A stretch of 64,000 nt of DNA, taken from NCBI GenBank assembly GCA_964355675.1, contig CAYHEC010000006.1, forward strand, positions 1-64,000, given 5' to 3'. The notes beneath the pieces are model-generated. The model searched no databases and was not told where the DNA came from. It saw only the letters and a list, made by a program, of their open reading frames with translations. Each line of letters begins with the position of its first letter. The first letter of the stretch is position 1. The DNA comes from an uncultured Caldithrix sp. (GTDB lineage: Bacteria; Electryoneota; AABM5-125-24; Hatepunaeales; Hatepunaeaceae). Below, one piece after another: positions 15,690 through 29,523 of the stretch. A program made the position numbers and the translations under genes.

Positions 15690-16799
15690 CTATTCTTCCT
15701 CCCAGTTTAATGATTGGTGCAAATGATAGTACCAACTTTTTGGCAGAACATTCTTGCGCTGAAGTCTGCCAAGAATTATTCCTGGAGTTATGCCAATCTC
15801 TCGTGCCCAGTTTTCAATTTGAGTATCAGTGATCACTTGAGTCGCCGCTATTCGTTCAATTCTGTTATAAATTTCTGACGGAATAAGCGTGTCGGCAGCA
15901 AACGCGTCTGCCTCTGCCTCAAACGGATTCTCCTTGCTCTGGTGATCCACATCTATGAAGAGGTCACGAGGCTCGTGCAGGAGCACATGGCCAATCTCGT
16001 GGAACAGCGTGAACCAGAAAATGTCAGCGCGCTTCCCGCGCAAGGTGATCTGTACAGATGGATTATTATTCAGCCATCGCGTCACTCCGGAAACCGGAAA
16101 ACTCTCGAATTCCTTCACCATCAGGAACGCAACGCCGCATTCACGACCGATTTTCTCAAGTTTCGGTTGCCACTCTGCACGCAAATGAAGGAGCGTCAGA
16201 CTTCGAATCTCGGGAAGTCGAGCACGTAAAGCATCGGGATTGAACGGTTCGAGTACGCAAGAGTTGTGCGCCTCTTCGCCTATCCTCAACCAAGCCGCAA
16301 GCTTAATCAACGGCAGATCAAACTTCGGGCTTTTGCGGTAGGCGAAAATGCTTTGGTCGAAATAGTTTTCGAGTGCTTCATAACTCGCGACGCGAAGCCA
16401 GTTCAGTGTAGCTCGTAATCGATCAATTGGTTGCTTAAAGTCTTGCAGATAACCGCGCTTAATTAATTCCCGGTACGGGGTGTCTTTAAACTTTTCCATT
16501 TGACGAGTGAGTTGTGCAACCTCTTGGTCACGAGCGAGGGTGTCCTGATAATTCCGCTCGATATTTAGCCAAAAGTATGCTGGCAAGCCGAGAACCCGTT
16601 CAAGCTGAATCGCCGTTTCCTTGGTAATGGCTTTCTTGGCGTTGATGATCTCGCTGATCGCTTGTGGTGGTTTGCCCATTCTGCGCGATAATTCCAACTG
16701 GCTCATATCGCGAGCTTCAAGGACTTCCTTGATGGTCTCGCCGGGAGGAATTGGAATCGGGGGCAAGTATGGTTTGGGTAGCTGATGTTGCTCAGCCAT
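15690..16799 (-). CDS. HigA-like XRE-family HTH antitoxin fused to ImmA/IrrE-family zinc metallopeptidase domain
   Basis: N-terminal HTH (…HPGETIKEVLEARDMSQLELSRRMGKPPQAISEIINAKKAITKETAIQLERVLGLPAYFWLNIERNYQ…) typical of HigA/VapI; C-terminal HEXXH (FHEIGHVLLHE) of COG2856 peptidases; overlaps upstream toxin gene by 8 nt. Confidence 0.75.
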   Translation of the reverse strand: MAEQHQLPKPYLPPIPIPPGETIKEVLEARDMSQLELSRRMGKPPQAISEIINAKKAITKETAIQLERVLGLPAYFWLNIERNYQDTLARDQEVAQLTRQMEKFKDTPYRELIKRGYLQDFKQPIDRLRATLNWLRVASYEALENYFDQSIFAYRKSPKFDLPLIKLAAWLRIGEEAHNSCVLEPFNPDALRARLPEIRSLTLLHLRAEWQPKLEKIGRECGVAFLMVKEFESFPVSGVTRWLNNNPSVQITLRGKRADIFWFTLFHEIGHVLLHEPRDLFIDVDHQSKENPFEAEADAFAADTLIPSEIYNRIERIAATQVITDTQIENWAREIGITPGIILGRLQRKNVLPKSWYYHLHQSLNWEEE

Positions 16800-17160
16800 G
16801 GTAGTCCCTAATATCGGTTATGCGGATGCGGTGAATTTTGCCTAAATCGTATTCCATAGAAGGAACGCCGTCCTCTGATAATGCTGAGAAGCATATTCGC
16901 CAACCGTCCTTCAGTACAACCGCCCACTCTTCTTGACGCGATCCTTGAAGTTTATGTCTTCTTAGCGGGGGCGTGACTGGAACATCTTTCAGACTGTCAA
17001 AAGATTGAAGTTCGACGATTCGCTGAAAGAGCCTTCTCATGTACAACTCGTTACGCAGCTTGCGCCTTGCAGCAGCTTCTGTGGTGCAGATTTTTTCTAA
17101 ACTGCCATTCTTGTAGCTAATATACATGAGCTTTTCCGGAAATGCAATACGCCCGTTCAC
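16792..17160 (-). CDS. higB: HigB-like toxin (RelE/ParE superfamily, 'plasmid maintenance killer protein')
   Basis: …LRRHKLQGSRQEEWAVVLKDGWRICFSALSEDG…IRITDIRDYH matches the HigB/COG3549 signature (…NRLEKLxGDRKGxWSIRINDQWRICFRWEDG…DYH). Confidence 0.7.
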   Translation of the reverse strand: MNGRIAFPEKLMYISYKNGSLEKICTTEAAARRKLRNELYMRRLFQRIVELQSFDSLKDVPVTPPLRRHKLQGSRQEEWAVVLKDGWRICFSALSEDGVPSMEYDLGKIHRIRITDIRDYHG

Positions 17161-17277: not shown

Positions 17278-17550
17278 TTAATTTTCAATGGGCTCCCGTC
17301 CCTCTACCAACGGCCCCACCGCGAGGTCTTCGTCGATCAGCGGCCAATGAATGCCGTAGCCGGAGGGGGACATTCTTAACCCCTGTCGCTCCAAGTCCGA
17401 AGCCATGGAGAGAGACAGAGAACATTCCTCCCACTTCAGAAAGTACCGCCCAGCGCCGGTCACAATAGTCAAGCCTTCTTTGGTCGCGCTGACCTCCTTG
17501 GCAAGGATGACCTGTCTCCGGTATTCTACCGGTTGTGCAATTTCTGCCAT
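17278..17550 (-). CDS. DUF2442-family protein (partner of DUF4160)
   Basis: Small protein overlapping the upstream DUF4160 gene by 25 nt; characteristic tail …GYGIHWPLIDEDLAV…. Confidence 0.55.
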   Translation of the reverse strand: MAEIAQPVEYRRQVILAKEVSATKEGLTIVTGAGRYFLKWEECSLSLSMASDLERQGLRMSPSGYGIHWPLIDEDLAVGPLVEGREPIEN

Positions 17551-17777
17551 GCCAGGGTAACCTCCTCTAAATTCTCAAAAATGATTTGACGCACCTCGCG
17601 TCTCAGCGCTGGCGTCATTCGCCAAGCCCAAGCTTCCTCTATCTCGAAGTCATCCACCCGAACCCAATACTTGCATTCCGCGTCGCCCTTTTCAGCGTGG
17701 ACATGCATCGGTTCGATTCCCTCGTTCGGGTAGATGATGATATGCCAGCCATGCTGATAAACGATTGTCGGGCTCAT
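17526..17777 (-). CDS. DUF4160-family protein
   Basis: MSPTIVYQHGWHIIIYPNEGIEPMHVHAEKGDAECKYWV matches the DUF4160 N-terminal signature (…PPHFHA…). Confidence 0.6.
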   Translation of the reverse strand: MSPTIVYQHGWHIIIYPNEGIEPMHVHAEKGDAECKYWVRVDDFEIEEAWAWRMTPALRREVRQIIFENLEEVTLAWQKLHNR

Positions 17778-18561: not shown

Positions 18562-19398
18562 TTACTTCAACCACTTCAGCCACTCCGTCTCGGGCGGCAA
18601 GACCAGCACCGTCGTCGAGTCGATGATCTTCTTGTACGCCTCCATGCTCCTGAAAAAGTCGTAAAATTCCGGGTCCTTGCCAAACGACTTCGCGTAGATG
18701 TCGATCGCCTTCGCCTCAGCCGCCCCGCGGACAGTTTGTGACTCACGGTACGCCTCCGCCATCAGCACCACCTTCAGCGAATCCGCCGCCGCCCGAATCT
18801 TCAACGCCTCTTCCTCGCCCTCCGAACGGTACTGGTTGGCAATCCGCTTCCGCTCAGCACGCATCCGCTCAAAGACCGACTTCTCATTCTGAGGCGGAAG
18901 ATCTGCCCGCTTGATCCGCACATCGACGACCTCGATACCGTAAGCCTTCGCCGCTTCGTTGGTTCTCGCGGTCACCTTCAGCATCAGCTCCTCCCGGTTG
19001 GTCGTCACAACTTCCTCGACGTCGTGCTTGCCAAGCTCGACCCTGAGCTCCGAATAAATGATGTCGTCGAGGCGCGCCTGAGCCCCGTTTTCATCGTGTA
19101 CACTGATGAAAAACTTCAGCGGATCGACGATGCGCCACTTGGCATAGTTGTCGAGAAGCAAGTTCTTCTTGTCCTGCGTCAGGATTTCCGTCGGGCTGGA
19201 GTCGTAGTCCAGTAGCCGTTTGTCAAAATAAGTCACCGCCTGGAACGGCCAGGGCAGTTTCAGGTGCAAGCCCGGTGTGGTGACCGTAGCAACCGGAGCG
19301 CCAAACTGCAACACAATCGCCTGATTGATCTCATCGACCTGGTAAATCGATGATAAGACAAGAATTATGGCTACCGCAATAAGAATCAGCTTATTCAT
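18562..19398 (-). CDS. hflC: Protease modulator HflC (SPFH/band-7)
   Basis: N-terminal TM + SPFH; …LHLKLPWPFQAVTYFDKRLLDYDS…; overlaps hflK by 4 nt. Confidence 0.85.
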   Translation of the reverse strand: MNKLILIAVAIILVLSSIYQVDEINQAIVLQFGAPVATVTTPGLHLKLPWPFQAVTYFDKRLLDYDSSPTEILTQDKKNLLLDNYAKWRIVDPLKFFISVHDENGAQARLDDIIYSELRVELGKHDVEEVVTTNREELMLKVTARTNEAAKAYGIEVVDVRIKRADLPPQNEKSVFERMRAERKRIANQYRSEGEEEALKIRAAADSLKVVLMAEAYRESQTVRGAAEAKAIDIYAKSFGKDPEFYDFFRSMEAYKKIIDSTTVLVLPPETEWLKWLK

Positions 19399-20381
19399 TT
19401 CCCACCTCCCTGCAGATTAAGCAGGTTGATCAGCCCGCCGTTCTTGTCACCCTTCACGATGTATTTCTTCAGCCCCGGTAGCACTTCCTCAAGCGTTTCC
19501 AAAAGCATCCGTTTGCGAGTCACTTCCTTCGCCTGACGGTATTCGTTCAAAACCTGATTGAAATTTGATGCGTCGCCTTCTGCCTTGGACACACGCTCCG
19601 AAGCGTAAGCTTCCGCACCCTTGACAAGCTGAGCCGCCTTACCGCGCACTCTTGGGATGATGTCCGAGCGGTAGGCTTCCGCTTCGTTAATCAGCTTCTC
19701 ACGGTCTTCGCGCGCCGAGGCGACGTCCTTGAACGCATCGACTACCGCATCGGGTGGGTGGACATCCTGAAGTTGCACGGCGACGATTTTAAGACCCGCG
19801 TCGTAGCTGTCCAGAATTCGTTGTAGCAGGATCATCGTCTCCTCCTGAATCTGTCCCTTGCCGCTGGTGAGGATTTCATCGATCTCGTGCTTGCCAACGA
19901 CCTGCCTCAGCGCCGCTTCGATAGGACGCGACGTGGCTTCGATGTCGCGCACCTTGAAGAGGAACTTCACCGGATCGATGATGCGATACTGGATGATGAG
20001 GTCAACCTTGACGATGTTCAGGTTGCCGGTCAGCATCTGCGACTCTTCCGGTTTATCGAGGTAGCGTGCCGGCGGACCCGGATCGACGGTGCGGAAGCCA
20101 ATCTCGGCGCGCCTGACCGACGAGACAGCGACTTTATCGACGCGCTCGACGGGCCACGGCAAGCGGTAGTGGATGCCGGGCGAAGTGACGCGGACGAAGG
20201 CTCCGAAGCGCCGGATGACGCCTTGCTGATCGGCGGCAACGACATAAACGCCAGTCGCCAGCCATACGGCGATGACGATGTAAAACAGCATTTTTTTGCC
20301 TGTCCCGAATATGGAGCTGACGTCGGGCACTTCGATGACTTCACCGTTAGGCAAAGTTACGTTTCGTGTTGGAATTTTCAT
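19395..20381 (-). CDS. hflK: Protease modulator HflK (SPFH/band-7)
   Basis: …IRRFGAFVRVTSPGIHYRLPWPVERVDKV… and C-terminal charged coiled coil; hflK-hflC order. Confidence 0.85.
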   Translation of the reverse strand: MKIPTRNVTLPNGEVIEVPDVSSIFGTGKKMLFYIVIAVWLATGVYVVAADQQGVIRRFGAFVRVTSPGIHYRLPWPVERVDKVAVSSVRRAEIGFRTVDPGPPARYLDKPEESQMLTGNLNIVKVDLIIQYRIIDPVKFLFKVRDIEATSRPIEAALRQVVGKHEIDEILTSGKGQIQEETMILLQRILDSYDAGLKIVAVQLQDVHPPDAVVDAFKDVASAREDREKLINEAEAYRSDIIPRVRGKAAQLVKGAEAYASERVSKAEGDASNFNQVLNEYRQAKEVTRKRMLLETLEEVLPGLKKYIVKGDKNGGLINLLNLQGGGK

Positions 20382-20674: not shown

Positions 20675-21349
20675 CTAAGGCGCTTTGTAATATACTGCGG
20701 TAGGCCCCATATACTTAATACCCTCTTTTTGCTCTAAAAGTAGTCGAGCAATTTCCAGCTTGTGAGTTTCTCTTTTATGTTGCCTAACATAATCTACGGC
20801 ACTTCGCAAAAGATATAATTTCAAGTAGTCGGCGGTACTCTCGAGGCTTAACCTGCCCTGAATGAATTTGCTAAAAGTGGCAATTAAGGATTTAGTAATT
20901 ATCGCTTTTGTATTCACAGTGACAGTTCTGTTTGTACCATCAATTGGCTCAAATCCAATTTTATCAAATCCAACAAAGGCTTTTGCTCCGATCTCCATTG
21001 CTTTCATACCTAAGCTTTCGGAACCACAACTGAAACAAAACACCGCTTTATTCTTGAACAAACTTAAGTTATCTTTATTAATGATTTCGGTAGATTCTCT
21101 TGTTTCTACAGCAATGCGATCTCTGTATTCACCTCCGTAAACACAATCATCACGGCCATGTGCCATTATGATTACAAATTCTACGCTTGCTTTTTCAAGT
21201 TCGACTAAGGCTAAGTTCTGATCACACTTATCGCTGAGTCTAAAAGATTTAAATGCATGTTTTTCCAACATAGTCACAACTGGTCCTAAATATTTTGTAT
21301 CTTCTGCAACAGAGTGAATACAAATACTACGATTTGTAGATTCGGTCAT
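20675..21349 (-). CDS. Predicted caspase-like / CHAT-like cysteine protease-fold protein (His...Cys dyad), last gene of the Dcm operon
   Basis: …EFVIIMAHGRDD… then ~40 aa later …AVFCFSCGSESLG…: spacing and hydrophobic strand context of the caspase-fold catalytic His-Gly and Cys; 4-nt ATGA overlap with upstream gene. Confidence 0.4.
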   Translation of the reverse strand: MTESTNRSICIHSVAEDTKYLGPVVTMLEKHAFKSFRLSDKCDQNLALVELEKASVEFVIIMAHGRDDCVYGGEYRDRIAVETRESTEIINKDNLSLFKNKAVFCFSCGSESLGMKAMEIGAKAFVGFDKIGFEPIDGTNRTVTVNTKAIITKSLIATFSKFIQGRLSLESTADYLKLYLLRSAVDYVRQHKRETHKLEIARLLLEQKEGIKYMGPTAVYYKAP

Positions 21350-22014
21350 TTATTTAAGTCAACTAAACATGCCACACCGAACTCAACAATTTCATGAGCA
21401 AGTCGCTTACCAATTTCATTTTGTTGTCTTACCGATTCTGCAAGCTCACGGAAACTTTTTCCATCTAAACCGGAGTTGGTTGTCTTCGCAAACAATCGCT
21501 CGTGTTTCATCAGAAATCTATCTGCCAACAAACACAGTGGCGGTGTCCCTAATGCCGTATAAACTTCATTCGGGAGATCGTCGCGCGAAATGAACCGATC
21601 AATCTCAGCGTCAAGTAGCTTTCTTAATAACTCTTCGGAAGTTTTCAATTTACTTGTCTTATCGTTTTCAATGACTTTTAGAAGCGTTTTACTCAGGGTT
21701 CCAGAATATAGCATCAGAATTGCTGCCCGATTCATAGCCCTAATAATTGCGATTATTTGGAGCGATAAATGAATTGCTGACGAAGGCTCGCTATTCGCAT
21801 CCAAGTTGATGTCAACTAAAACAACATCCCAGAATTCACTCGCGCGTTCTTGCACTTCCTTCAGAAAATTATCCCTGCTATGGCCTGACGAAAAGTCGAT
21901 TGGATTTATTTGATGGATATAAACCTCACCATATTCTCCCTCAATAGCACGTTTTGTCTCAGTAAATGCATTTGCATTTCTTATATCATCAATTGCGAGA
22001 ATACGGATTTTCAT
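21346..22014 (-). CDS. Receiver (REC/CheY-like) domain protein with uncharacterised C-terminal helical domain
   Basis: MKIRILAIDD… (β1 acidic pair), …WDVVLVDINLD… (putative phospho-acceptor Asp), …ILMLYSGT… (β4 Ser/Thr); 4-nt overlap with GHKL gene. Confidence 0.45.
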   Translation of the reverse strand: MKIRILAIDDIRNANAFTETKRAIEGEYGEVYIHQINPIDFSSGHSRDNFLKEVQERASEFWDVVLVDINLDANSEPSSAIHLSLQIIAIIRAMNRAAILMLYSGTLSKTLLKVIENDKTSKLKTSEELLRKLLDAEIDRFISRDDLPNEVYTALGTPPLCLLADRFLMKHERLFAKTTNSGLDGKSFRELAESVRQQNEIGKRLAHEIVEFGVACLVDLNK

Positions 22015-24290
22015 GCTATAAACTCCAATACGAATTTTGCACCCCCGAGGATCGGATCATTACCTTCGAGAGAAATTTTCCCATTCATGTCTTTCATAAT
22101 ATCCCTGCACGTATATAACCCAATTCCGGATCCTCCCCGTCCACTAATTCCAAGTTCGAAAAGTGAATCAACGAGACCTTTCTTAACTGCCTCTCCATCA
22201 TTGGATATTGTGACAAGCATCCTCCCATTAGACGATGTGATACTAACAAGGAGATTTCTTGCATGTGCCTTAATAGCATTATCCACTAAGTTATCAAATA
22301 ATATTGTAATCGCCATCGGTCTGAATAGCCTTACAAATTCATTATTGTCATAAGTAATAGAGACTTTCGGTGTTGGTCTTGGTAAATCATCACCCTTTAG
22401 GTATTCGTATATAAATCGCCCTAAATCGTTCCGAATTTGTTCGACCTTTAGATTGAAATCGGCCTTAGTAACAATGCTACTTACTTTTACAGTCTCATCA
22501 ATCCATAGCTTAATTTTACTCAGAGAATCAAGTAAGCTATCTCTATCGTATTTATCGCGTTTAATATCGCTAATGAGAGAGCTTATTGTTCCACGCATTT
22601 TTTGTGCGGATAACTTGATCCAATGATCCAAATTATCACGAATCTCTTCTGGATTTCTCGCATTTGCTAACAGGAAAATATTCTTCCGTCGCTCAGTCTC
22701 ATACCTTCGTTCTGCCTGTTTACGCGACTGTTTGGCTTCTACAGCTTCCTTTTCGGCTTCTTCGCGAGCGGCTGTCAAGTCTGCATAGCGTTTTTCAATC
22801 AAGGCTATCTCTTTAAGAAGCGATTCATTGCCTGTATTCATTGCAATTCGCTTTAGATTCGATAGTGTGGACACGACACTTGCGGATTGTCGGTCGCTTA
22901 AGATATCAAGGAGTTTTTGATCGTACTCAATATCCAAAATATCTTTGGAGTCAGTCAATTTCTTGATGATCTCAAGTATATCGACTTTAACATCAATCGG
23001 TAGCAGTTCTTCATCTGTTCCTTTTGGCGGAGTACCCCATTTAATGGTTTCTATAGTATATTTTTCCAAGCGTTTCAAGGCGTAATCCCAAAAAAATTCT
23101 TGCAAATCACGCCATTCAGGTGAATCTATAAAGCCAGCATTCCTGCTTGAGGTTTCCCTGAAATGTGAGTCATCACCATACACCTCTATACGACCCGAAA
23201 GCTCTCTTGTCCCAAGATTTCGATAGTATCCTTGCTGTTTTCTTCGATCGATACCAAGCCCATCATCACCTTCATCACCAAATGGGTGTAAACGAAAGCC
23301 ATTTTTATACACAAATACAGAACCATAGGCAACATTATGCATACCTACAGCCCTATGGAAATGTAATTTTGCAGATCTATTGAGAGCAAACAGATAGATA
23401 CGGACATTGGCTAAAGAATCATACGGACATTTTTCAGTGATGCGATATATCAATGAACCGCGATCAGTTAGAGTTGTAGATACAGTTTCACATTTACTAT
23501 CTACGACACATTGTATCTGCGTAGTCCTAAGTCTCAAATCTTCAAAAAGAAAGTTTCGTATTGTACCATTTATACAATTTCTCTCGTCTTCTTCAAGCTC
23601 ATCTGAAAATTGCTCTTCCGGAACAATCAGTTCAATAGTAAATCCCTCCGCATCATTCTCCTGATTAGGGTTTATCAATTTGCGCAATGCATCGCGTAGC
23701 TTTTTAATTTTTAAACGATCCCATGTCTCGCGTAGGCCAGAAATCTCTAAAATGGTTCCTACATTGAGATTGTAAGGATTTCTTTCACTGGAGGAAATAC
23801 TCACATGAATATCGACGAATTCTTTCTTACTGTCTTCCTCAAATTCCTGCCAATCAACATCCACTCTTTCAATAAGTTCATTTGCATTAGCACGCGTGTA
23901 AAGGCTCAGAAGATTGCCTAACCTATCACATGAAAAACGCCCTATCCCCTTCGCTCCGGCAAATGTGCGCTTACCGACAATTTTATTGCGATAATCTCTT
24001 GATTGGTCAAATAGGTCGTCTTCGACTCCTTCGTGTTTTGCAGAATATGCAACAAATAGCCATTTATTTACAACATCATCAGGAGTCATGCCTTTACCAT
24101 CGTCCGCAATGATAAGTCGAGGAGCAGACGTGCGAAGTCCTTCGAATCGTATTTGTACACTACGCGCATGGGCATCGAATGAGTTCTTTACTAATTCAAA
24201 TACAGCAACAAAATCATCGGTGATTAGTTCACGCCCGATGATCTTCTTTAATGCCGAGCTGATCCGGAATGTGGCCGGGCGTTTAGGCAT
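22011..24290 (-). CDS. Two-ATPase-domain protein: N-terminal MORC/MutL-like GHKL ATPase (HATPase_c_3-like), coiled coil, then C-terminal histidine-kinase-like ATPase with degenerate H-box
   Basis: N-term …FVAVFELVKNSFDAHARSVQIRF…LIIADDGKGMT… (Bergerat N/G1 boxes); C-term …FDNLVDNAIKAH…ISNDGEAV…GGSGIGLYTCRDI… (HK N/G1/G2 boxes); region before it (…NIFLLANARNPEEIRDNLD…) resembles a DHp H-box but lacks His; start ATG at 24290 overlaps Dcm stop (gATGccTAA). Confidence 0.6.
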   Translation of the reverse strand: MPKRPATFRISSALKKIIGRELITDDFVAVFELVKNSFDAHARSVQIRFEGLRTSAPRLIIADDGKGMTPDDVVNKWLFVAYSAKHEGVEDDLFDQSRDYRNKIVGKRTFAGAKGIGRFSCDRLGNLLSLYTRANANELIERVDVDWQEFEEDSKKEFVDIHVSISSSERNPYNLNVGTILEISGLRETWDRLKIKKLRDALRKLINPNQENDAEGFTIELIVPEEQFSDELEEDERNCINGTIRNFLFEDLRLRTTQIQCVVDSKCETVSTTLTDRGSLIYRITEKCPYDSLANVRIYLFALNRSAKLHFHRAVGMHNVAYGSVFVYKNGFRLHPFGDEGDDGLGIDRRKQQGYYRNLGTRELSGRIEVYGDDSHFRETSSRNAGFIDSPEWRDLQEFFWDYALKRLEKYTIETIKWGTPPKGTDEELLPIDVKVDILEIIKKLTDSKDILDIEYDQKLLDILSDRQSASVVSTLSNLKRIAMNTGNESLLKEIALIEKRYADLTAAREEAEKEAVEAKQSRKQAERRYETERRKNIFLLANARNPEEIRDNLDHWIKLSAQKMRGTISSLISDIKRDKYDRDSLLDSLSKIKLWIDETVKVSSIVTKADFNLKVEQIRNDLGRFIYEYLKGDDLPRPTPKVSITYDNNEFVRLFRPMAITILFDNLVDNAIKAHARNLLVSITSSNGRMLVTISNDGEAVKKGLVDSLFELGISGRGGSGIGLYTCRDIMKDMNGKISLEGNDPILGGAKFVLEFIA

Positions 24291-25584
24291 CTGACAACAC
24301 CTTCTTAATCGACATTCCAATCAATCGAGCGAATAGCGGTGGTATCGCATTCCCGACCTGTGTGTAGCGAGGAGTCTCTAACGCACGCCGATGTCCGCCA
24401 GTAGTATAAGGTCCTTTGAACTCAAACCAATCGGGAAAGGTCTGTAGTCGGGCGCACTCTCGGACGGTTAGTACTCGGGCTTCTGAGTAATGGATATTAT
24501 CGTCCGGTATCGTTGTTATAGTAGGAGCGGTTTGATCAGCGTTAAGCACCACAACGCTCCGCTTCATTAAGCCAAATTGTTCTCGATCTGTCCCCTCTAT
24601 CCTTTTATCTCTGACAGCATGAGACAGGAGTTTTTCAAATACACCTCTGTTCGCAACGGTATGGTTCACAAAACGATGACTATCGGGGATGTGTTGTTCT
24701 TGAATGTTTCTCATGTACTTCTGAACAGGAGTGCATGAATCCGCCGTTATGCCGGATTTGAACCCTCTTGAATCAGGGCATTGTGTGGATCCGTGTTGCT
24801 GTTCCAGGTCGGAGATCGCCGATTGAACGCTATTGAGGCTTGGTAACCCAAGTGTTGACAGTCGTTCAAACCTTGTTGCTTTTAAGTCATCAAAGATGGC
24901 GTTTGCGAGGTTCTCGCGTGTTGCTACTGCAATAAAGCGAACTCTGCGTTGTGGAACACCGTATTGCGACATGTCTATGAGTTCGCCTTGCGCGTCGCTA
25001 TAGCCCAATTCCTTCAGTCTATCAATGACCACTTTAGAATATGCTACGCCAGATTCAGCATTGGCCTTAAAACGCTTTGTGAAGCCGCGAACGTTCTCAA
25101 AAATGATGCAGCGAGGTTGGACTAACTCAACGAATTCCAAGTATGAATGTACAAGACGATTGCGACTGTCGCCTTCTCGTCTTCGCCCAGCAGTTGAGAA
25201 TCCTTGACAGGGTGGTCCGCCAGCTACAAGATCGACTTGCCCACAAAGCCCCTTTAGTTCATCAACCTTCTCGATGAGCAAATCCTGTATATCCCAATTT
25301 GTGACGGATAACCAATCTGGCCACTCGTAATGAGTGTGCTTATCGATCAGGTTTGTTCGAAGCGTCAAAAACGCCGATTGGCTGCGTTCAACAGCAAAAA
25401 GCCCTCTCCACCCAGATTGGTGAAGACCGGTACTCAAGCCGCCACAGCCAGCAAACAAATCGATTACTGTGAGTTCGCTATGTTCGTTCTCTTTTATCAA
25501 AATTCCTTTATTATTTGAAGGGCGAGCAAAGACGGGCTCGGTAAACCGGCCCCTACGCGACAGGGTGCGGACACCCTGTCGCAC
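24283..25584 (-). CDS. dcm: DNA (cytosine-5)-methyltransferase
   Basis: Motif I DLFAGCGG, motif IV GGPPCQGFS, motif VI ENV (IIFENVRGF), motif X (YTQVGNAIPPL). Confidence 0.9.
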   Translation of the reverse strand: MRQGVRTLSRRGRFTEPVFARPSNNKGILIKENEHSELTVIDLFAGCGGLSTGLHQSGWRGLFAVERSQSAFLTLRTNLIDKHTHYEWPDWLSVTNWDIQDLLIEKVDELKGLCGQVDLVAGGPPCQGFSTAGRRREGDSRNRLVHSYLEFVELVQPRCIIFENVRGFTKRFKANAESGVAYSKVVIDRLKELGYSDAQGELIDMSQYGVPQRRVRFIAVATRENLANAIFDDLKATRFERLSTLGLPSLNSVQSAISDLEQQHGSTQCPDSRGFKSGITADSCTPVQKYMRNIQEQHIPDSHRFVNHTVANRGVFEKLLSHAVRDKRIEGTDREQFGLMKRSVVVLNADQTAPTITTIPDDNIHYSEARVLTVRECARLQTFPDWFEFKGPYTTGGHRRALETPRYTQVGNAIPPLFARLIGMSIKKVLSDA

Positions 25585-25673: not shown

Positions 25674-26450
25674 CTACCTCGCAAACTTCTTCACCCAGCC
25701 GAAGTACTGCGTAAAGAACGTCATAGTATCATAAACAATCCGCGAATTGTAGATGTAGAACCACAAACCCGACGTTGTGACCAACTTATAGAACAAAATC
25801 CCGCAGAGGAAGATCGTTCCAATGAAAATCGCGCCGATCCTGTTGAAATACTTGACTCTACCGATCCGCATCTCTTCCATGTAGTAGCGGATTCGTTTAT
25901 CGTTCAGGTGATCTTCGGTCAAAAATATCCCCATAATCGACCACGCCAAACCAACCATCACCCCCACGATAATCGTCAGTGACGGCATCCACTCGATTAT
26001 ATTCGGGTAGCTTATTTGCCAATAAACAGTCAACCCCATCCCCAAGAAGACCATTATGTTAGTGAATTTACGGAAGTTGCGCAAGTAGGCCGGCAATTTG
26101 AAGATGAATTTATTGCGCGCGGCTGTAGCTTCGACGTTTGCCTTGGCGATGTACTCGATTATCTGCCCGCCGAACCAGGAAAAAAACAAGAAACGAAATT
26201 GATGATCACCGATGTAGTCGAACAGCCGCCCGGTGCCGAAAATCTGTTCGAAAAATGCTACAATCACAACGGTTAGCATATATACCAACGACCAGAAAAT
26301 GTAGCCCTTGTCTTCGGCGAACAAGATCGTCGTGTCGCGGACCTGATCCCAAGTCGGCACTTTTTTAAGCGCCTCTCCGCAAGCGGGGCAGGTTTTCTCG
26401 CGGAAGAAGTTATAGGCGGAAATCGATCCCTTACAGTTCGGACAATGCAT
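25674..26450 (-). CDS. Membrane protein with N-terminal zinc-ribbon (CPNC…CPAC) and ~6 TM helices
   Basis: MHCPNCKGSI…CPACGE; multiple hydrophobic helices. Confidence 0.45.
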   Translation of the reverse strand: MHCPNCKGSISAYNFFREKTCPACGEALKKVPTWDQVRDTTILFAEDKGYIFWSLVYMLTVVIVAFFEQIFGTGRLFDYIGDHQFRFLFFSWFGGQIIEYIAKANVEATAARNKFIFKLPAYLRNFRKFTNIMVFLGMGLTVYWQISYPNIIEWMPSLTIIVGVMVGLAWSIMGIFLTEDHLNDKRIRYYMEEMRIGRVKYFNRIGAIFIGTIFLCGILFYKLVTTSGLWFYIYNSRIVYDTMTFFTQYFGWVKKFAR

Positions 26451-26816: not shown

Positions 26817-27218
26817 ATGTCAAACAAATTACGTTTCAGAGCCCTAATCGGGCTGATTGCGGTTATTATGATTGTGGATGGAACGCTACTACCATCAGGA
26901 GAAGCCGTAGCTCAAATCACCCACACAGTCGTCGTAAAGGACCTTATTGACCCTTATCCGGTTGAGGGTCTTGATCAAACTATTCACTTCCACTTTTACT
27001 TCAATAATCAGGAAGTAGATGATGTGGTGCCTGTAGAAACCGATCCAGGAGTCTATGAGGGCGAAACATTCCTTGATGCGCCAGAATATGATTCGTGGAC
27101 GGTCGAAATTGATCCGGACGATGATTTTGATTTTCCATATTTGGATCCAAACCCAACGGCTCACAAGTCATCACTGACTTACCTGTTTAATTGGATAATT
27201 GATGACAATCGCCCTTGA
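26817..27218 (+). CDS. Small secreted hypothetical protein
   Basis: Signal peptide MSNKLRFRALIGLIAVIMIVDG…; ORF opens at 26709. Confidence 0.35.
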   Translation: MSNKLRFRALIGLIAVIMIVDGTLLPSGEAVAQITHTVVVKDLIDPYPVEGLDQTIHFHFYFNNQEVDDVVPVETDPGVYEGETFLDAPEYDSWTVEIDPDDDFDFPYLDPNPTAHKSSLTYLFNWIIDDNRP

Positions 27219-29523
27219 CCAAGGCGGATTAAAGAAAGTTTGGCGGGGAGGCGCAAGTTTCCCCGCCATTATTCTTAACAGCCTCATTTCGACATTCAAT
27301 TTCTTGAGATTTAAAATTATTATTTTACTCTTTTTGCCATTCGTTTTCTTTGAGCCTTCCTTTGCTCAACCAAGAATCGAGTGGCTTCGCACCTACAATG
27401 GCCCCCTCGACAGAGGTGGCGTTCTGTATGATGTATTTGCCACAGAAGAGGGAGGTTTTGCAATGACCGGCTCGGTCAGCGGAGATGAGCGCTATTGCTG
27501 GCTACTGGTGACAAATCGCGACGGTGGGGTGATTCATCAGAGCTCACATCCTCGGGCTTTCGAAAATCCGATTTGTGAAGGTAAAACTATAATACAGGAT
27601 GTCGCGGGAGGATATCTTATCGGTGGAAGTTTGAGGAGCCGCGACCTAACTCCGGCACGATTTGGTCTAATTCGAACTGACGAGGAGGGGGAGCTGATAT
27701 GGTGGCGAGAATATGCTATAGGAATGTGTTATGCAGTGATTGAAGAGAAAGCGGGTAATTTCATCGCTTGCGGAATCGGTCGAATCGGCCAAGCCTCAGG
27801 AGCATTCGTGGTCAAGTGCGACGTCGATGGAGATACGATATGGACTAAACTGTTTGAGAATGAGACCTATTTTAAAGGCTTACGCGAGACTGAAGATGGA
27901 ATTATTCTGGTGGGATTGGGGCAGGCTCAGACACTTATCTGTCGTCTTGATGAGGATGGGGGGCTTATTGATATGCAACGCCATGGACAGGGAGTTCTCT
28001 ACTCGTTAGTGTCCTGTCCTGCTGGTTTTTTAGCCTCAGGATCTGACGCTGGCAATGTTTTGGCAATGAGGCTTGCTGAAAATGGGAATCTGAGATGGAG
28101 ACGAGTGTACGATATTTCTGGTATTGCCTACGGCGTTGCTCGGATGCCCGATGAAGGCTTCATTCTCTGTATTGCCTCCTCTGGACACCGATTGCTCCGC
28201 ATCGACCGTGGAGGGAATGAAATGTGGAGGCGCTATGATGATGATATCAGGGGTAACGGCTGGCAGTCTATAGTGACGAATGTTGATGGTGCTGCTTATG
28301 TAGTTGGCGATTTTAATGGCAGTCAAGGATGCTTAATGAAAGTCCAGCCCGATGTCAGCCCTCCGGTCATTATTGATTGGACTCCTTCCCAATCTGAATT
28401 GAAAGTACTTCTCGGTGACTCAATAGATTTTGCAATTGTCGCTGAAGATATTCAGGATGATTCATTATGGTTTCGTTGGAGCCATAATCGTGATGATCTT
28501 GGGGTCGAAAATGATCACACTACTCTCGATTTTGATGAGTTGGGGTTGGATACGGTCAAATGCTCTGTGTTTGATAGTTCCGGCTCCGATCTGGCGGAAT
28601 GGCACGTCACCGTCACTGACCTCTACATCCAATCCTTCACCCCCGACACGCTCAACCTCACCATCCGCCGTGGCAACTCCGTTGACTTTGCCATCGATTC
28701 CGTTGCCGCCGTCGGCGGTAACGACGACATGCAGTACCTCTGGACAAAGACCAATCTTGATAATCAGGGAGAACCGGAGCGCTCGGGCGAGGACGCCCAA
28801 GCTACCATCCCCTTCCTCCAATCGGGGAACTTCGCTGTCGAGGGACTGGCTTACCGCGAGCAATCGAGCGACGCGGTCGTCTGGAATGTAGCAGTGAGTG
28901 GAGCAATCTGGAGCTTTGCACCGGAAGACATTACGCTTGAAGTCTTGCCCGACAGCCTCGTGAGGTTTGAGGTTTTTCCAAATGATCCCGATTCAGTCGG
29001 GTGGTCGATTGCGTGGCTTGTCGATGGGGAGGTTGCGCGGGAGGGTGAGACGACGCTGGAGTGGCGGTTCTTCGGTGAGGCGGACAGCTGTCCGCCTCAC
29101 CTCGTGCAGGTCGTTGTGGCTGATTCGGTTGAGGCGGATACCGTGACGTGGGAGGTGGTGGCAAGAGAGTTAGGGGTTGGGGATGAAGAGGCTGGCAGGC
29201 CGGGACGTCCTGCCCTACTGGATGTTTCGCCGAATCCGTTCAATTCAATGCTGACGATAAAGTACACGACGGGCTCGGCGGCCCGTCCTACGCGGCTTGC
29301 CATCTACGACGTCTCCGGGCGGGAGGTTGTCAGGCTGGTGGATGGTGGTTCTTCCGTCAACCCCCCGTGGTTGACGGGAAGGAACTCTGCCGACCGCAGG
29401 GGGTCGGCAGAAGAAACGAGTAGCGCCACCTGGAACGCCTCTCCTTTCCCTGCTGGAGTCTATCTCGTTCGTCTCCAAACCGGACAAGAGGTTTCGACCA
29501 AGAAGGTTGTTTTGATCCGGTAG
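27199..29523 (+). CDS. Large secreted protein with beta-propeller-like region, repeated Ig-like modules and Por/T9SS C-terminal sorting domain
   Basis: Signal peptide (…IIILLFLPFVFFEPSFAQ); internal repeats (…SIDFAIVAEDIQDDSLWFRW… / …SVDFAIDSVAAVGGNDDMQYLW… / …LVRFEVFPNDPDSVGWSIAWL…); C-term LLDVSPNPFNSMLTIKY…AIYDVSGREVVRL…AGVYLVRLQTGQEVSTKKVVLIR = classic T9SS CTD. Confidence 0.65.
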   Translation: MMTIALDQGGLKKVWRGGASFPAIILNSLISTFNFLRFKIIILLFLPFVFFEPSFAQPRIEWLRTYNGPLDRGGVLYDVFATEEGGFAMTGSVSGDERYCWLLVTNRDGGVIHQSSHPRAFENPICEGKTIIQDVAGGYLIGGSLRSRDLTPARFGLIRTDEEGELIWWREYAIGMCYAVIEEKAGNFIACGIGRIGQASGAFVVKCDVDGDTIWTKLFENETYFKGLRETEDGIILVGLGQAQTLICRLDEDGGLIDMQRHGQGVLYSLVSCPAGFLASGSDAGNVLAMRLAENGNLRWRRVYDISGIAYGVARMPDEGFILCIASSGHRLLRIDRGGNEMWRRYDDDIRGNGWQSIVTNVDGAAYVVGDFNGSQGCLMKVQPDVSPPVIIDWTPSQSELKVLLGDSIDFAIVAEDIQDDSLWFRWSHNRDDLGVENDHTTLDFDELGLDTVKCSVFDSSGSDLAEWHVTVTDLYIQSFTPDTLNLTIRRGNSVDFAIDSVAAVGGNDDMQYLWTKTNLDNQGEPERSGEDAQATIPFLQSGNFAVEGLAYREQSSDAVVWNVAVSGAIWSFAPEDITLEVLPDSLVRFEVFPNDPDSVGWSIAWLVDGEVAREGETTLEWRFFGEADSCPPHLVQVVVADSVEADTVTWEVVARELGVGDEEAGRPGRPALLDVSPNPFNSMLTIKYTTGSAARPTRLAIYDVSGREVVRLVDGGSSVNPPWLTGRNSADRRGSAEETSSATWNASPFPAGVYLVRLQTGQEVSTKKVVLIR

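Follow-up and report, generated by a model that had tools for sequence, protein, structure and literature searches.

What is the function of an operon in which a C5 cytosine DNA methyltransferase is encoded together with a double-ATPase sensor kinase, a receiver protein and a small protein with conserved His and Cys residues? The question is raised by a four-gene locus at positions 20675-25584 (minus strand) of the stretch analyzed here, positions 1 to 64,000 of contig CAYHEC010000006.1 (64,000 nt in all, hereafter the window). Our analysis suggests that this operon is probably a new effector variant of a widespread, mostly putative class of methylase-linked two-component phage-defence modules. 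The complete explanation, according to which it is a mobile methyltransferase-linked two-component immune module whose phosphorelay runs all the way to the last protein, P4, has in our judgement an even chance of being correct. The four genes are the following, in the order of transcription.

24283-25584, minus strand: Dcm, C5 cytosine DNA methyltransferase, starting with GTG at 25584 or with an in-frame TTG at 25500
22011-24290, minus strand: dual-GHKL kinase, 759 aa from the ATG at 24290 (open reading frame and domain matches)
21346-22014, minus strand: P3, receiver protein, 222 aa (open reading frame and family comparison)
20675-21349, minus strand: P4, His/Cys protein, 224 aa (open reading frame and family comparison)

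Organization of the operon

All neighbouring genes overlap. As read from the sequence, the ATG of the kinase gene lies inside the stop of Dcm (cagATGccTAA, an overlap of 8 nt), and the kinase/P3 and P3/P4 junctions are each an ATGA with an overlap of 4 nt. From these overlaps the four genes are predicted to be co-transcribed and translationally coupled. An earlier, sequence-only reading of this DNA had described overlaps of 4-8 nt, a kinase ATG within the Dcm stop and two ATGA junctions downstream, and all of this is found in the letters, the overlaps being 8, 4 and 4 nt. Its view of the locus as one co-expressed four-gene module that includes Dcm agrees with the overlaps as well as with the recurring gene order reported below. 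The open reading frame that it assigned to a GHKL protein stands, but the product is 759 aa long from the ATG, not 760.

The module was also said to be AT-rich relative to hflKC, and it is: the G+C content is 0.37-0.40 over 20.5-24 kb (the P4, P3 and kinase genes) and 0.47 over Dcm, compared to 0.52-0.59 in the adjoining hflK and hflC genes. This low-GC island beside hflKC argues for horizontal acquisition of the operon. Around the module we saw no flanking direct repeats, tRNA gene, convincing promoter or terminator at the island ends.

The kinase protein

The 759-aa kinase is a soluble protein composed of a GHKL ATPase with an S5 domain, a coiled coil, a DHp domain with His556 and a CA domain, with the following landmarks.

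23829-24209, minus strand: HATPase_c_3 (Bergerat ATPase) domain, PF13589, 2.4e-19
23181-23636, minus strand: S5/transducer-like beta-rich domain (approximately residues 219-370), directly after the GHKL domain
22623-22625, minus strand: codon of His556 in the DHp helix (NLDHWIK), the phospho-acceptor predicted from conservation
22023-22313, minus strand: CA domain with intact N, G1 and G2 boxes, PF02518, 1.1e-19

Conservation was analyzed in an alignment of 79 distinct homologues that are 37-100% identical; at 100 positions the identity reaches 97% or more. In the N-terminal ATP site, residues E32, N36, D63, G65, G67, G112, K114, G115 and G117 are invariant, and Bergerat motifs I-III are intact. 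This ATPase shows weak matches to MutL and to the NCBIfam BbrUII/HgiDII restriction-enzyme ATPase (1.2e-16, far under the cut-off), and the S5/transducer domain follows it immediately, as the definition of MORC and paraMORC proteins demands. Neither a nuclease fold nor a nuclease motif was found in the middle region of the protein, for which AlphaFold, supplied with 46 sequences, gave a model (residues 165-545) with a predicted local distance difference test (pLDDT) score of 81.

In a profile search against the Protein Data Bank (PDB), the C-terminal 215 residues matched the combined DHp and CA cores of solved kinases (ThkA with 5e-15, VicK, HK853 and others), and the CA domain aligns with those of ThkA and PhoQ. 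His556 is 100% conserved in the 79 sequences, the columns that flank it being 1-85% conserved, and N671 (N box), G699 (G1, with D698) and G720, G722 and G724 (G2) are invariant. No Pfam model of the HisKA type matches the protein. In the alignment with 9m08_C the counterpart of His556 is the H-box His (SHELKTP); against 3a0r and 4i5s, HMMER places His556 otherwise. Since only one of these three PDB alignments matches the H box, the assignment of His556 as phospho-acceptor rests mainly on its absolute conservation.

The second ATPase had been regarded as a degenerate histidine kinase. Because none of the 79 homologues deviates at His556 or in the N, G1 and G2 boxes, and with PDB matches that span both DHp and CA, we predict that the histidine-kinase core is intact and that His556 is its phospho-acceptor. 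The other part of that description, a MORC/MutL-type GHKL domain fused at the N-terminus to a sensor-kinase-like ATPase, is supported by the PF13589, PF02518 and PDB matches. Judging from the conserved residues, both ATP sites, the MORC-type and the kinase-type one, retain their catalytic motifs.

The receiver protein

In P3 the following parts can be delineated.

21574-22014, minus strand: REC domain (family profile, invariant residues)
21811-21813, minus strand: codon of Asp68, predicted phospho-acceptor, invariant in the family
21346-21573, minus strand: C-terminal helical domain of approximately 75 aa with the pattern G-x-SF-x-ELA ... G ... E-x-G-I/V-A

The P3 sequence alone has no match in Pfam, and word-indexed searches returned one relative each for P3 and P4; both families were built from fetched loci and an exhaustive HMMER search. 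In the P3 family D9, D10, D63, D68 and S104 are invariant, and the position that resembles K109 of CheY carries a basic residue (R144 in P3, R or K in the family). The family profile matches the receiver TrrA (E=0.003), with the segments ILiiDD and DvvliD, i.e. the DD pair and the phospho-Asp, in register. Comparison with hhalign relates residues 2-147 at a probability of 97% to the receiver of a sister family, REC-HEPN (see below), in which 25 of the 26 members match Pfam Response_reg. On these residues and profiles P3 is predicted to be a true and complete receiver, in keeping with the CheY-like receiver that had been proposed for it. Among sequences of solved structures, the kinase core and the receiver find their best matches in one cognate pair, ThkA/TrrA from Thermotoga (3a0r chains A and B).

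We also considered the C-terminus of P3 as a degenerate HEPN domain; this was ruled out, as hhalign aligns the REC part only. The C-terminal domain shows a weak, non-significant similarity to the XRE-type helix-turn-helix (HTH) domain of SinR (E=0.39).

The His/Cys protein

The two residues on which the prediction for P4 centres are encoded as follows.

21158-21160, minus strand: codon of His64, invariant
21026-21028, minus strand: codon of Cys108, invariant

The P4 protein of the window, a predicted alpha/beta protein, is not matched by any Pfam, NCBIfam or PADLOC model. When 1.84 billion representatives were scanned exhaustively with HMMER, 103 relatives were obtained, nearly all of them 210-250 aa long. 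In a 60-sequence alignment H64 and C108 are the sole invariant residues, G65, G72, S110, G127 and F128 are at least 90% conserved, and the motifs HG-x6-G and C-x-S are kept; the same alignment contains no invariant acidic or metal-binding residues. When two profiles of the family were compared with PDB sequences, caspase-1 p20 ranked first, with a weak E-value of ~0.15, HG-x6-G being aligned with the caspase SHG...G and the Cys with QACRG, that is with the motifs of caspase-1 His237 and Cys285. Single family members gave matches below the cut-offs to the NCBIfam model of Csx29 TPR-CHAT (0.0043) and to Pfam Peptidase_C25 (gingipain; 0.061) and Peptidase_C50 (separase; 0.097). No clan-CD family profile was matched significantly (best PDB E = 0.15); the only database similarities of P4, all of them weak, are to clan-CD peptidases. 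The AlphaFold model, made from an alignment of only 2 sequences, is poor (pLDDT 42); its beta-alpha order and the location of His and Cys at predicted strand ends fit a caspase-like core. Taking the motifs and the weak matches together, we lean towards predicting a clan-CD-like fold for P4. The sequence thus points, if weakly, towards the caspase-like protein that the sequence-only reading had suggested. A REC-like domain was considered for P4 as well and ruled out by hhalign (probability 0.3%).

Wherever flanking DNA could be read, P4 adjoins the module: this holds for 12 fetched loci and for 3 of approximately 100 cluster representatives, while two further representatives lie on contigs under 2 kb that show the adjacent upstream gene only. 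We also found one protein, P0176 (464 aa; Logan ERR5029655, contig of 2988 nt), in which a P3-like receiver with its C-terminal domain is fused to a P4-like domain through a linker of approximately 10 residues. Its gene overlaps by 4 nt with the gene before it, which is truncated.

The methyltransferase and the variants of the locus

Dcm matches PF00145 (2.3e-54) and TIGR00675 (2.6e-42), as well as type II and Druantia-type C5 methylase models, and contains the motifs DLFAGCGG, PPCQGFS, ENV, QRR and GNAIPP. The sequence-only reading was correct in naming the first gene a Dcm methyltransferase and in seeing no classical restriction nuclease in the operon, none being present among the domain matches. 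The start of Dcm is ambiguous: homologues align from residue 36-41 on, and the TTG at 25500 suits their lengths better.

Relatives of the kinase are numerous. At E<=0.001 we retained 7,495 of the 8,000 scored candidates, and among the 120 listed nearly all are full-length. They occur in at least 591 species genomes (GTDB) from Verrucomicrobiota, Bacteroidota, Planctomycetota, Bacillota, Patescibacteria, Chloroflexota, Pseudomonadota, Nitrospinota and Acidobacteriota. In the plasmid and phage collections we detected no full-length homologue, only similarity in the N-terminal ATPase. The four-gene order recurs in Opitutaceae, Luteolibacter, Spartobacteria, Akkermansia, Dyadobacter, Chitinophaga, Lewinellaceae and metagenomes, with identities down to ~20-40%, and because it recurs across such distant taxa the arrangement is not due to chance.

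We surveyed the best 80 species-level loci of the kinase family. Co-occurrence of the genes across genomes had been put forward as a check on the sequence-only reading, and synteny with Dcm was indeed found, an orthologue lying directly upstream of the kinase gene in 76 of the 80 loci. It is 41-66% identical over approximately 400 aa in most of them, often above the conservation of the kinase itself, and drops to 31-35% in a few loci from Bacillota and Planctomycetota. A receiver gene directly follows the kinase gene in 75 of the 80 loci. According to the receiver and what comes after it, the loci fall into four groups.

59 of 80 loci: fusion proteins of 280-350 aa in which REC is followed by a HEPN domain with near-invariant RNxLAH
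8 of 80 loci: stand-alone REC, with identified or presumed nucleases nearby in the four that were checked
8 of 80 loci: REC-X followed by P4, the form of the window, in Verrucomicrobiota, Bacteroidota and a proteobacterium
5 of 80 loci: other, namely four cut by contig ends and one with a long REC protein that lacks the Rx4H motif

The RNxLAH motif of the REC-HEPN proteins (e.g. L030:9303-10217, L040:9311-10231 and L003:10289-11257) is the Rx4H signature of HEPN domains, and their weak Pfam matches centre on HEPN_Swt1 (6), Abi_2 (3) and HEPN_Apea (3). Three loci with a stand-alone REC (L042, L043 and L051) carry a gene for a protein of 391-394 aa between Dcm and the kinase. The domain scan covered L042 (3538-9663), where this gene encodes an MvaI/BcnI endonuclease and the methylase begins with a DNA-binding domain of the Arm type; layout and gene sizes are the same in L043 and L051. 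In L055 (9265-10538) an HNH nuclease is encoded downstream of the stand-alone receiver. Going by these predicted domains, the position after the receiver is filled by interchangeable effectors or enzymes.

One very divergent four-gene copy (L091:1-10683), with a kinase of 676 aa and a P4 relative of 314 aa (E=4e-4), is flanked by TniQ/TnsD- and TnsE-like genes, a Mu-type transposase and an IstB-like ATPase, and is probably cargo of a Tn7-like transposon. Other neighbours in related loci include type I restriction-modification (R-M) systems, Vsr, ParE, DarT-NADAR, integrases and AbiJ. On the Enterobacter mori plasmid NZ_CP119171.1 (L094, 205844-209066), the gene for a 718-aa dual-HATPase protein precedes that for a REC-containing protein of 357 aa, and no methylase gene adjoins them, which shows that kinase and receiver can also occur as a pair without Dcm; this pair is located near an AbiJ-NTD4 gene.

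Proposed mechanism and alternatives

In the mechanism that we propose, the MORC-like clamp, probably with Dcm as its DNA-reading partner, would detect an infection-associated state of the DNA, and detection would trigger autophosphorylation of the kinase at His556. The phosphoryl group would then move from His556 to Asp68 of P3, the phosphorylated REC domains would dimerize, and the 75-aa C-terminal domain of P3 would join two P4 protomers. Once paired, P4 would be active as a caspase-like cysteine protease and would cut host or phage proteins, so that growth stops or the cell dies, following an abortive-infection logic. In the majority variant the effector is HEPN, and the same dimerization would build its composite Rx4H RNase site. 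Because HEPN RNases and caspases are both activated on dimerization, one relay could drive either effector. Taken in its strictest form, this proposal states that the His-Asp phosphorelay directly switches on dimerization-activated death effectors, the MORC-type histidine kinase and Dcm sensing foreign DNA and the receiver activating the P4 protease or, in approximately three quarters of the sampled relatives, the fused HEPN RNase; in this form we consider it tentative and rather doubtful.

Several observations weigh against an immune relay of this kind. The defence role is a prediction from sequence and analogy, and no PADLOC model matches the three non-Dcm proteins. The C-terminal domain of P3 could couple the receiver to P4, or it could be an HTH domain. 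P0176, a single protein, could be a Rosetta-stone fusion, or it could result from an assembly frameshift in a short contig. In Ambrosia, the tested analogue compared below, the methylase did not protect phage DNA (10.1101/2025.09.30.679545); because of this, and since transcriptional control is favoured for that system, sensing of unmethylated DNA and direct activation of the effector are both uncertain.

The alternative that survives best takes up this last point: P3 would be a DNA-binding response regulator (REC with a small HTH domain), phosphorylated P3 would induce the operon, and P4 and Dcm would act through their expression. AbrC of Ambrosia is such a REC protein with a winged HTH (wHTH) and its cluster is induced on infection, and the 2021 description of a related triad (PMC8011034) likewise proposed regulation of R-M genes. 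In the clade of the window, however, 59 of the 80 loci have the receiver fused to a HEPN enzyme domain and not to a DNA-binding domain, which argues for post-translational control. The pattern G-x-S-F-x-E-L-A in the C-terminal domain of P3 and its similarity to the HTH of SinR would suit a regulator, but the similarity is not significant, and the same domain is found in the P3-P4 fusion. XRE/C-protein-like genes upstream of the module in L001 and L002 also speak for transcriptional control; against it, P4 is translationally coupled to P3 on one transcript, which makes their separate regulation impossible. We regard a transcriptional role of P3 as unlikely.

According to a second alternative, the operon would be an unconventional ATP-dependent R-M system, comparable to HgiDII or BbrUII, in which Dcm protects, the GHKL protein, P3 and P4 restrict, and P4 is a novel nuclease. 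The weak likeness of the N-terminal ATPase to BbrUII/HgiDII (1.2e-16) is, however, limited to the ATPase domain (60 bits against a cut-off of 550), and although paraMORC proteins are typical partners of R-M systems, the middle region of the kinase has no nuclease fold or motif. Strong conservation of the Dcm lineage, adjacent in 76 of 80 loci, and true MvaI/BcnI or HNH nucleases in the cassettes of some relatives would fit restriction, but P4 has invariant His and Cys only, without invariant acidic or metal-binding residues, the HEPN domain of the majority form is a fold known for RNases and not for DNases, and an intact His-Asp phosphorelay has no place in classical restriction. This makes an R-M system improbable. 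A non-defence role, as a selfish addiction module or as an epigenetic or DNA-repair regulator in which a MutL-like ATPase with a kinase monitors Dcm methylation or damage from 5-methylcytosine deamination, is suggested by the MutL/MORC similarity, by Vsr genes near some relatives and by Pectobacterium homologues first noted as genes induced in plant infection, but is very improbable given the patchy, mobile spread over at least 9 phyla, with a low-GC island and Tn7-like cargo, the exchange of toxic-type effectors (HEPN, HNH, His/Cys enzyme) between loci, neighbours such as type I R-M, ParE, DarT-NADAR and AbiJ, and the fact that the closest tested analogue, Ambrosia, is a defence system.

Implications

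Eukaryotes use MORC ATPases to silence foreign DNA, and caspases carry out immune cell death. The operon unites a MORC-type sensor, a bacterial phosphorelay and a putative caspase-like enzyme beside a DNA methylase in one four-gene cassette. If an immune relay is indeed at work here, it would show a GHKL clamp turning a DNA signal into a phosphoryl signal, and phosphorylation-controlled proteolysis and RNA cleavage would join the known outputs of bacterial immunity. It would also assign a function to a module that hundreds of species carry and that tools for finding defence systems still miss, and would reveal an unrecognized and widely spread family (at least 591 species) with a new mode of control for a caspase-type enzyme. 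The "two-component system near R-M" of 2021 would then be reread as a sensor-effector immune system and not as a regulator. Current Pfam and PADLOC models miss the clade of the window. The REC-HEPN and His/Cys forms are compact and easy to test experimentally, and REC-HEPN, the majority form, may be the more important target for experiments.

Genomic surroundings

Directly upstream of the operon and on the same strand, the window encodes a 258-aa protein that has several hydrophobic segments and, at its N-terminus, a CxxC...CxxC zinc ribbon (25674-26450, minus strand); its gene ends 89 nt upstream of Dcm and its product has no family match. In L001 and L002 an XRE-type HTH gene (XRE/C-protein-like) takes the place of this gene. 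Further upstream lies a gene for a 774-aa protein with a C-terminal type IX secretion sorting domain (27199-29523, plus strand; Por_Secre_tail, 1.6e-08), a feature that indicates a host of the Bacteroidota/FCB group.

On the other side, beyond hflKC, there are two small overlapping genes for DUF2442 (90 aa) and DUF4160 (83 aa) proteins (17278-17777, minus strand) and, near this pair, a 122-aa open reading frame (16792-17160). The closest relative of the module, L088 from another metagenome (P4 76% identical), adjoins a Band_7/SPFH gene (L088:6004-7065), which parallels hflKC of the window (18562-20381). This shared SPFH neighbourhood may reflect related organisms or a preferred insertion site.

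Comparison with known systems

The sequence-only reading had considered that this could be an undescribed defence system; as a whole it is not, for the core triad was published in 2021 and an analogue, Ambrosia, was validated in 2025. Bellieny-Rabelo et al. (PMC8011034) described, purely in silico, a triad of a C5 methylase, a HATPase_c_3-DHp-HATPase_c protein and a response-regulator-like protein in 644 regions, saw no output domain on the receiver and proposed that the triad regulates R-M systems. The window has what defines that triad, namely an upstream C5 methylase, HATPase_c_3 with a DHp His and HATPase_c, and the receiver residues. The two share the same core and gene order, the conserved DHp His, a receiver-like gene with conserved Asp residues, and a wide, patchy spread that includes Bacteroidota, Verrucomicrobiota and Proteobacteria. 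They differ in that the His of the window protein is followed by Trp (HWI) and that of the triad by an acidic residue, and in that neither a HEPN nor a His/Cys partner was reported for the triad, whereas the clade of the window has both outputs. The Pfam model PF19191 (HEF_HK) matches neither the window proteins nor five related kinases, and PF19192 (Response_reg_2) matches one of 26 related receivers (E=0.026) and none of the window proteins; the Enterobacter plasmid homologue, used as a positive control, is likewise unmatched by both. As these matches are lacking, we place the window module in a sister clade outside the 2021 Pfam models.

Ambrosia (doi 10.1101/2025.09.30.679545, a preprint) is an anti-phage system that consists of an XRE protein, an N6-adenine methylase, a HATPase kinase, the REC-wHTH protein AbrC and an HNH protein. 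Every gene and the REC phospho-site D60 are needed for defence, the cluster is induced on infection, and its authors favour transcriptional control via REC-wHTH. Like the window operon it brings together in one cluster a methyltransferase, a sensor kinase of the HATPase type, a REC protein and an enzyme as effector, and L055, with its REC and HNH genes, mirrors the Ambrosia layout. Ambrosia, which is found mostly in Pseudomonadales, has N6-adenine methylase, XRE and HNH genes, whereas the methylase of the window operon is of the C5 type, its REC carries the unassigned 75-aa domain of P3, its output is a His/Cys protein, and neither an upstream XRE gene nor an HNH gene is present, so that the window operon does not fit the description of Ambrosia.

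The kinase protein resembles MORC and paraMORC proteins in the order of Bergerat ATPase and S5/transducer domains, the link to a cytosine methylase and the lateral mobility. ParaMORC ATPases were described as partners of R-M systems by Iyer et al. in 2008 (PMC2292703), and the GHKL-nuclease Shedu protein VcSduA (paraMORC3) has been validated (PMC12137116). Known paraMORC proteins carry or neighbour nucleases, TIR domains or helicases, whereas the output in the window is a predicted histidine-kinase core that feeds a receiver. Membership in the BbrUII/HgiDII family was rejected, NF050001 scoring 60 bits against a cut-off of 550 and covering profile positions 25-183 of 659 only.

Detocs (DtcABC) likewise uses a His-Asp phosphorelay as the signalling layer of defence and has an enzymatic effector on the receiver protein, but it consists of a HisKA kinase, a separate Hpt-type DtcB and the REC-PNP protein DtcC, without a methylase or a MORC module. 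The window operon is not a member of Detocs (no PADLOC match, no third phosphotransfer protein, no PNP domain), nor of Mza, which the PADLOC and NCBIfam scans of the window proteins rule out; on both counts the earlier reading had come to the same view. DefensePredictor lists a HATPase+REC system among its unvalidated predictions.

P4 itself is best compared with the clan-CD immune proteases, i.e. SAVED-CHAT, Csx29 (the TPR-CHAT protein of type III-E CRISPR systems) and gasdermin-activating caspase-like proteases. It shares with them a His and then a Cys after hydrophobic strands, the motifs HG-x6-G and C-x-S, and the place of terminal effector that we propose for it. At 224 aa it is much smaller, it lacks a sensor or TPR domain and stays under the family thresholds, its fold is here predicted, and while those effectors are controlled by a nucleotide signal or a CRISPR complex, P4 would be controlled through a phosphorylated receiver.

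In our search of the literature we found no description of REC-HEPN or of REC with a His/Cys protein as outputs of this module. Functionally, the module belongs with the methylase-linked paraMORC-kinase/receiver systems, a class that is already described and has one validated analogue. What appears to be new are the swapped effectors and a His/Cys family that adjoins this module wherever enough flanking DNA could be read, including one case of fusion to the receiver.

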